Of a stretch of 64,000 nucleotides of DNA, positions 29,086 to 29,725 are shown piece after piece (position 1 is the first letter of the stretch; every line of letters starts with the position of its first letter). Source of the stretch: Eledone cirrhosa (Eukaryota). The notes under the pieces are model-generated. The model had not been told where the DNA came from. It worked only from the letters and a program-made list of their open reading frames with translations, and ran no database searches. The position numbers and the translations under genes were made by a program. The stretch spans positions 184,016,001 through 184,080,000 of the forward strand of contig OZ024742.1 in assembly GCA_964016885.1 (NCBI GenBank), read 5' to 3'.

Positions 29086-29725
29086 AAACAAGGTTTAGTA
29101 AATAATGAAAAAGTTTCAAAATAAATTTTAAAAAATTGACTTTACCTACTATAGTTACCTTTACCGATTGAACCACACTGGCATTTGGTTGGACAATACA
29201 TGCGTACCTTGGCGCCTTGTGCGTGAAGGAACGTATTTCCTATTACTACTACCTCCACTAACGTTGAGAACAAATTTGGTCGTTCTGACTGCTGCTAGCA
29301 ATAGCTGTGGCTAGTTTGACCTACCTCCTTTTGCCTCTATCTTTGCTACGGCCCTTGATAAACCTGTTCTACATCATCCACTCTCATCCCAGGAACAGTT
29401 TTGATAGCGCTAGTTTGTGATTTAAATTCAGGAATTTTATATTCTTTGAATGAAAAGAACCTTCTGACGAGAATCTTTCTTTGCAACGAAGGCCGTATGG
29501 TCTCCGTTTTATTTTTGGGATTCGAAACCGATCGGTAAAGGTAACTATAGTAGGTAAAGTCAATTTTTTAAAATTTATTTTGAAACTTTTTCATTATTTA
29601 CTAAACCTTGTTTATATTTATTCTGGCTCGTTAATTTATTAACCCGCCATTGAACCACACTGGCATTTGGTTGGACAATACATGCGTACCTTGGCGCCTT
29701 GTGCGTGAAGGAACGTATTTCCTAT
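29086..29725 (+). mobile_element. Retrozyme-like element: 482-nt monomer, 77-bp terminal redundancy and 5' inversion
   Basis: Direct repeat 29167-29243 = 29649-29725. Inverted repeat ~29083-29167 vs 29531-29616. Internal HHR, (TA)n on both sides, no credible ORF. Confidence 0.8.
29459..29542 (+). ncRNA. Type I hammerhead ribozyme
   Basis: ACCTT-CTGACGA-[GAATCTT..AACGAAGGCC-GTAT-GGTCTCCGTT..GGGATTC]-GAAAC-CGATCG-GTA/AAGGT, with palindrome ACCGATCGGT. Confidence 0.9.

Follow-up and report, generated by a model that had tools for sequence, protein, structure and literature searches.

The window, the whole 64,000-nucleotide stretch of DNA that was analysed, belongs to a 3.0-Gb genome in which simple repeats are abundant. 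Between two of its TA tracts lies an insertion composed of two arms of a 482-nt unit, which meet head to head. Unit coordinates (u) are given as the window position minus 29166, and the insertion has the following features.

29039 to 29086, no strand: left (TA)24 target microsatellite, its last bases common with end B (sequence and repeat scan).
29082 to 29168, minus strand: arm B, inverted, running from fixed end B (u449-451) back to u365-367 (inverted-repeat match).
29167 to 29168, no strand: 2-nt AT overlap at the inner ends of arms A and B (gap of -2).
29167 to 29725, plus strand: arm A, direct, 559 nt or 1.16 times the 482-nt unit, terminating at fixed end A.
29167 to 29243, plus strand: copy 1 of a 77-nt repeat (u1-77); 29243 is an internal site A that was read through.
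29459 to 29542, plus strand: type I hammerhead motif, its stem III palindromic (CCGATCGG), with predicted cleavage at 29537/29538 (descriptor match).
29538 to 29609, plus strand: predicted hairpin 3' of the cut, with the stem I 3' strand and an ACCTT just before site B (folding, weak, z of -1.5).
29610 to 29617, plus strand: internal site B (GTTTATAT), read through here; it marks where B arms end on the template.
29649 to 29725, plus strand: copy 2 of the 77-nt repeat, with end A at about 29725.
29723 to 29831, no strand: right (TA)n target microsatellite.

The two copies of the 77-nt repeat (29167-29243 and 29649-29725) are 100% identical at a spacing of 482 nt, as follows from an arm A that is 1.16 units long. 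The original prediction had taken this repeat for a terminal redundancy of the unit. The repeat is perfect and correctly spaced, but it repeats the start of arm A (29167) and not the start of the whole insert. An inverted copy of the post-cleavage sequence had also been placed upstream, and it is present: positions 29078-29168 are 99% complementary to 29531-29621, the outer ~8 nt being TA repeat. The copy is not confined to post-cleavage sequence, however, since the template stretch of arm B is 29531-29617 and its inner end lies 5 to 7 nt beyond the predicted cut site (29531/29533-29537). Each outer end of the insertion has its last ~3 bases in common with the flanking (TA)n, and a stem-loop is predicted before end A (z of -2.4 for 29620-29725). 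The 482-nt unit is noncoding, with stop-free stretches of at most 62 aa on the plus strand and 73 aa on the minus strand. With one hammerhead, at 29459-29542, it is a unit of the retrozyme type, as had been predicted.

The hammerhead was identified in a descriptor scan and is composed of stem I (ACCTT/AAGGT), CTGACGA, a 7-bp stem II with a 39-nt loop, GAAA, the palindromic CCGATCGG, and TA/AAGGT. Cleavage is predicted after 29537, that is, after u371. An Rfam search with the motif gave no match at the gathering score or at an E value of ≤10, and folding of the isolated motif did not produce the hammerhead shape (z of -1.0). Both results may be expected of a dimer-type ribozyme as described in the available text of PMC4209133. 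Because the window copy has a single complete ribozyme, it would not be expected to release monomers on its own, and it is probably inert. At least two consecutive complete ribozymes, by which a 2026 preprint defines an active element, are absent from the window copy, which has one complete motif; they are found in other copies of the family, such as 26 insertions with at least two full passes.

The window is a nest of hammerhead insertions within TA repeats. Just upstream, at 28598-29038, lies a two-armed hammerhead element of another family with 182-nt arms that are 99% complementary; its motifs are at 28727-28792 (minus strand) and 28932-28997 (plus strand), and its left arm is ~80 nt longer, again giving a short and a long end as a pair. 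Type I hammerhead-like motifs of other families are located at 1290-1356, 4090-4160, 5467-5546, and 44142-44208, all on the minus strand, and a degenerate hammerhead-like motif lies near 28100-28170 on the plus strand. At positions 11871-23938, a 24-nt ACC-rich unit is repeated over 12 kb; its long open frames are rich in Pro/Thr or in His/Gln, and the array may be a satellite or a mucin-like exon.

A DNA search with the 482-nt unit returned copies at 97 to 100% identity (best 40 of 1889 candidates scored). In the genome, exact patterns matched the ribozyme junction 1196 times, the B end 242 times, and the A end 52 times in its main class plus 21 times in a +2-nt class. The reversed-pattern controls gave 0 matches each, and the counts thus exceed what chance would give. 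A pattern for diverged junctions had seven matches, every one of them in a copy of the 482-nt family. This family is young and polymorphic. We fetched 171 loci, comprising the 30 best DNA matches (a set biased toward long copies), 51 A-anchored loci, 87 B-anchored loci (from the first 100 matches listed, on contigs C1-C3), and 3 longer re-fetches. Five loci were dropped, namely, L051 (a minisatellite), L057, L062, and L075 (re-fetched instead), and L144 (target missed). Collapse by end coordinates left 152 pieces; it merged 7 distinct single-armed loci and therefore slightly undercounts single arms and stops near u380. The fetched loci are spread over many contigs, with a period of 482 to 483 nt and arms of up to 8.8 units. 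Other copies with this period, which the original prediction called for, are thus found at unrelated loci. In contigs of four sequencing runs from one study, the repeat occurs at high depth, and no listed piece covers the whole stretch. The L051 minisatellite (L051:1-1330) has a 19-nt unit derived from u368-393, around the ribozyme cut site. A sister retrozyme family lies at L074:1540-2345 (minus strand); it has a period of ~480 nt, is ~62 to 68% identical, and has the palindromic stem III in common.

Two ends are fixed across the family. End A is at u77-82, 188 nt past the cut site, and end B is at u449-451, ~78 nt past the cut site. The two template sites are ~110 nt apart, and both terminate in TAT and pass directly into (TA)n. 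The predicted RT start ~190 nt past the cleavage site corresponds to end A, and the check proposed with it, that copies have a common 3' end and a variable 5' extent, gave this pattern across the family. Two arms are present in 97 of the 152 pieces. Among these 97, there are 89 A+B copies (one of them scored from a 26-nt piece), a single B+B copy, and no A+A copy; in 5 more the second arm ends elsewhere, and 2 are cut by the edge of the locus. The remaining 55 pieces are single armed (33 B, 15 A, and 7 other), and several of these bear a second arm too short for BLAST. The anchored sets alone gave 46 A+B versus 1 B+B and 36 A+B versus 0 A+A. (TA)5 is found at both outer ends in 86 of the 89 A+B copies, and the arms overlap by 0 to 3 nt at the inner junction in most copies (gap mostly -3 to +1). 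The tail, which is on one end only, is ~110 nt long. The inverted piece is more than the post-cleavage copy that had been proposed: it is a second cDNA arm that starts at a fixed site of its own, end B, and this end occurs together with A in 89 of 97 cases. Given this signature of two starts and a one-end tail, which is that of a PLE, the 77 bp merely mark the point at which arm A stopped.

Many arms are longer than the unit. Of 235 arms, 92 exceed one unit (79 of 215 in the anchored subset) and 26 exceed two units, with a longest arm of 4265 nt and shortest arms of 25 nt. Both arms are longer than one unit in 9 of the 89 A+B copies, and the summed arms are longer than one unit in 68. At one locus, 10 ribozyme junctions follow in succession. 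The 5' stops of the arms lie at variable points spread over the whole unit and are enriched 2 to 3 times at u360-383 (34 versus 15 expected, for an interval picked after the data had been seen). This excess is chiefly upstream of the cut, with 21 stops versus 6.7 at u361-371 and 13 versus 7.8 at u372-383. The junction was read through in 264 of 298 approaches, and stops near it made up about equal shares of first (22/192) and later (12/106) crossings. Among 269 read-through passes, a count that takes in only passes kept whole by BLAST, 255 are perfect over 12 nt, 13 have one substitution, 1 has a deletion, and none has an insertion. The ribozyme junction was thus crossed, as predicted, and this scar-free read-through at the cut site indicates that the template was continuous there. 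One insertion is present as three paralogous copies, with 2.5, 3.5, and 2.5 units (an assembly error is possible); the number of units can change after insertion.

Haplotypes were compared at 22 diagnostic sites. Discordance was 1.6% (44/2728) within arms and 3.3% (33/1010) between both arms of an insertion, with 14 of the 33 coming from L005, whereas it was 40.6% (198388/488214) between insertions. The 26 insertions with at least two full passes have 23 different all-pass haplotypes. When unit-specific variants with a counterpart pass were scored, 74 of 76 were private to one arm and 2 were common to both. Since each insertion has one haplotype and variants are mostly private to one arm, new mutations appear to go through a one-unit bottleneck. 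In 27 insertions, within- and between-arm divergence did not differ significantly (Wilcoxon P = 0.29) and were correlated (rho of 0.62), as expected if arrays were inserted at full length. Within-arm divergence is somewhat below between-arm divergence (per-element means of 0.71% versus 1.06%; pooled, 0.33% versus 0.81%), and longer arms are younger arms (rho of -0.49), which leaves room for later homogenisation. The youngest long copies (L117, L125, and L171) have zero differences over up to six units and both arms. The original prediction of more than one turn on a 482-nt circle or tandem is upheld insofar as copies of more than a unit exist; between circle and tandem, the haplotypes favour a single monomer template.

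Four insertions depart from this pattern. L167 has two unit-specific variants common to both arms. In L003 and L017, variants alternate with a two-unit period, which fits a dimer circle or a later two-unit duplication. The arms of L005 carry two haplotypes; one arm starts precisely at the cut site, with a pass that has three rare variants also present in one L151 unit, as though two distinct monomers had been linked. One monomer circle does not fit every insertion, and these four call for a template that was dimeric or mixed, or for conversion at a later time.

The ribozyme core is intact in ~99% of passes. Of 54 inherited variant positions, none falls within the 43 ribozyme columns (P = 0.002). 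These columns were chosen after the diagnostic sites had been seen, and a second count was therefore made with the 7th stem II pair added (45 columns); it took in 1 of the 54 inherited variants (P = 0.01), a change from U-G to C-G. Unit-specific variants within the ribozyme columns numbered 32 versus 31 expected. As judged from these variant counts, the ribozyme is under selection, and its activity is predicted; the constraint could alternatively come from protein binding. It counts against the proposed cleavage that Li, Clavereau and Pollet (2026, bioRxiv 10.64898/2026.07.22.740005) saw it in only 1 of 9 predicted retrozymes. Taken together, the variant patterns speak for a bottleneck of one unit that depends on the ribozyme, for which a ligated monomer circle is the simplest account.

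Intact PLE ORFs with RT and GIY-YIG, of 1217 aa and nearly identical to one another, are present in the genome. Pfam gave no name for the 1217-aa protein, which we take to be PLE-like by its RT core and C-terminal GIY-YIG-type motif. A second autonomous PLE family has short and long ends that are paired 41 nt apart, the PLE tails in the genome are 41 nt and about 42 to 61 nt, and further PLE families exist besides the two compared. A comparison of the 482-nt unit with 80 PLE loci (50 of the 1217-aa family and 30 of the second family) revealed no pLTR homology, and the sole strong match is a separate older copy of the 482-nt unit. The end words GTTTATA and TCCAT, common to the unit and the second PLE family, are too short to count. 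At L202-L204 (G000:C1:307.33-307.35 Mb), 4.1-kb PLE units form a head-to-head tandem in which the four ORF copies have 0 to 1 mismatches, compared with 3 to 15 between full-length copies at different loci. This uniformity is like that of the retrozyme and was seen at one locus only. Within the window, 45700-47685 (minus strand) holds a degraded, frameshifted PLE-like RT-endonuclease copy that is piecewise 55 to 85% identical to the 1217-aa ORF.

The best reading of the 482-nt element is that of a non-LTR retrozyme that works like a non-autonomous PLE. Metazoan non-LTR retrozymes are likewise noncoding, low-GC tandem units, each with one type I hammerhead, that are scattered through a PLE-bearing genome in forms from monomers up to multimers; the 482-nt unit is above the size range of 150 to 450 bp in PMC7229834 and within that of 51 to 972 bp in bioRxiv 10.64898/2026.07.22.740005. 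Animal non-LTR retrozymes yield circular RNAs (PMC7229834). Their mobilisation by PLEs has been proposed in both of these sources, and tandem cDNA from circular RNA has been proposed in the first (Cervera and de la Pena 2020); the second argues that they originated from PLEs. Neither source, in the available text, mentions two arms, fixed ends, or uniform haplotypes, and the words "inverted" and "microsatellite" have 0 occurrences in the main text of PMC7229834. The ribozyme of the 482-nt family, with a short stem I (5 bp) and a long stem II, is nearer to the PLE type than to canonical retrozyme ribozymes. The plant LTR retrozyme, with a type III hammerhead in its LTRs and a 4-bp TSD, is unlike this family, which has a type I motif, (TA)n flanks, and a variable repeat length.

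As described by Craig et al. (2021, bioRxiv 10.1101/2021.04.23.441226), PLEs have an adjacent inverted truncated copy and a tail of 30 to 40 bp that is usually confined to one end. Frangieh et al. (2024, PMC11167929) describe a PLE protein that nicks both strands and extends them from two internal positions. Partial tandems, the adjacent inverted 5'-truncated copy, the one-end tail, (TA)n targets, and two internal starts are common to PLEs and the 482-nt family. The family differs in that it is without an ORF and has a tail of ~110 nt rather than 30 to 40, a typical value and not a strict criterion. It also pairs A with B almost strictly and has TAT microhomology at the target, whereas the PLE studied in vitro had no strand difference in start site and a nonhomologous start (PMC11167929). 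PLE hammerheads resemble that of the 482-nt family in their long stem II, short stem I, palindromic stem III, and dimer-type cleavage (Cervera and de la Pena 2014, PMC4209133). The same paper tentatively proposed a circular RNA template for RT beyond one unit and noted close opposite-strand ribozyme pairs. In the 482-nt family, the circle model, tentative there, is backed by variant patterns among genomic copies.

In L1 twin priming, two primers at one target site give rise to a head-to-head inversion; the position of the second site varies, and each of the two cDNAs copies another part of a linear RNA. The 482-nt family is similar in its head-to-head inversion from two primers at one target and differs in that neither site varies and in that the two arms, taken together, are longer than one unit in 68 of 89 copies. 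Among the papers listed from the open literature, no title or abstract reported a haplotype test of the circle model or fixed two-end pairing in a retrozyme, which is a weak sign of novelty, and the available text of PMC9977147 contains nothing on tandem insertions.

On balance, we think that the window copy is probably a 5'-truncated, two-armed, noncoding copy that was inserted by a PLE RT-endonuclease priming both strands on one ligated circular monomer RNA; the circularity of the template is what we infer from the genomic copies. Under this model, tandem copies would be transcribed, and the hammerhead would excise monomers, probably as a dimer via the palindromic stem III. Ligation of the monomers would then yield circles. 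A PLE protein would nick both strands and one cDNA would be initiated at each of A and B, leaving the footprint that is seen: insertions in (TA)n, two fixed sites ~110 nt apart, and TAT matching the target. The enzymes would roll round one and the same circle, and in the genomic copies both arms cross the ribozyme junction scar-free, over 25 nt to 8.8 units and with one haplotype. The inner ends would finally be joined head to head, as they are found, with an overlap of 0 to 3 nt in most copies. Weighing against this model are the failure to find a PLE similar to the unit among the 80 PLE loci, the TAT start that contrasts with the PLE studied in vitro, the four insertions that depart from one monomer circle, and a unit number that can change after insertion. 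A stronger form of this model, for which we see belief and doubt in balance, is that the insertions are a fossil record of rolling-circle, twin-primed RT, in which the two enzymes of a PLE pair at a cut (TA)n would each start from a fixed point, assigned by strand, on one circular RNA and make up to nine or ten turns, displacing the product of the other. L003 and L005 would then be records of dimer circles.

PLE priming at two sites could instead have taken place on an uncut linear multimer from a genomic array, with uniformity and length arising in the DNA by unequal exchange or conversion. In vitro, unprocessed RNA was the dominant substrate of another PLE, ribozyme mutants of which still inserted, and RNA-seq ends were absent at its ribozyme site (PMC11167929); the dominance of unprocessed RNA and the absent RNA-seq ends argue against a circle. 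The one-unit difference among paralogous copies and the variants common to both arms of L167 also fit a linear multimer, and scar-free junctions are equally compatible with it. However, this explanation would require that 23 haplotypes had been homogenised over all units and both arms of 26 insertions. Of the unit-specific variants, 74 of 76 are not common to both arms, and variants inherited in register between loci are not seen, except in the one unit common to L005 and L151. Selection on the ribozyme columns would also be unexpected if cleavage were irrelevant. We therefore regard the linear multimer as unlikely.

Another uniform template, either a multimeric RNA produced by rolling transcription of a circle (DNA or RNA) of one monomer or a linear cut monomer on which the enzyme makes a precise jump from the 5' end to the 3' end of that molecule, would give the same one-unit bottleneck and uniform arrays as the preferred model. 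The enrichment of stops at u360-383 (34 versus 15) and the L005 arm that begins exactly at the cut site are in keeping with it. End-to-end jumping by non-LTR RTs, however, is expected to leave scars. Here, 255 of 269 junctions have no added or lost bases and there are no insertions, most of the excess stops lie upstream of the cut, and the junction was passed in 264 of 298 approaches. The route through a DNA circle would not need the ribozyme, and yet the ribozyme is conserved. Such a template is, in our estimate, quite improbable. Finally, it is most improbable that the 77-bp repeat arose by target-site or local tandem duplication and that the inverted piece folds back by chance, as the two perfect 77-nt copies at the window locus might suggest, because in every copy this 77-nt stretch lies inside the unit, (TA)n forms the flanks, and unrelated loci show the same period and the same ends A and B; the family-wide period and fixed ends refute a target-site duplication, in agreement with the original prediction.

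The element class is itself ordinary, and both the class and the circle model have already been published. Copying of PLEs and retrozymes from circular RNA was proposed in 2014 and 2020, and one in vitro study favoured unprocessed RNA. The young and polymorphic 482-nt family provides a direct genomic test of this proposal, with one haplotype per insertion and a ribozyme that, by its variants, is under selection. Two exact start sites and a 482-nt template can now be named for an assay. If the rolling-circle, twin-primed reading is true, the near-identical 4.1-kb tandems of the autonomous PLE may perhaps have been built by the same route.
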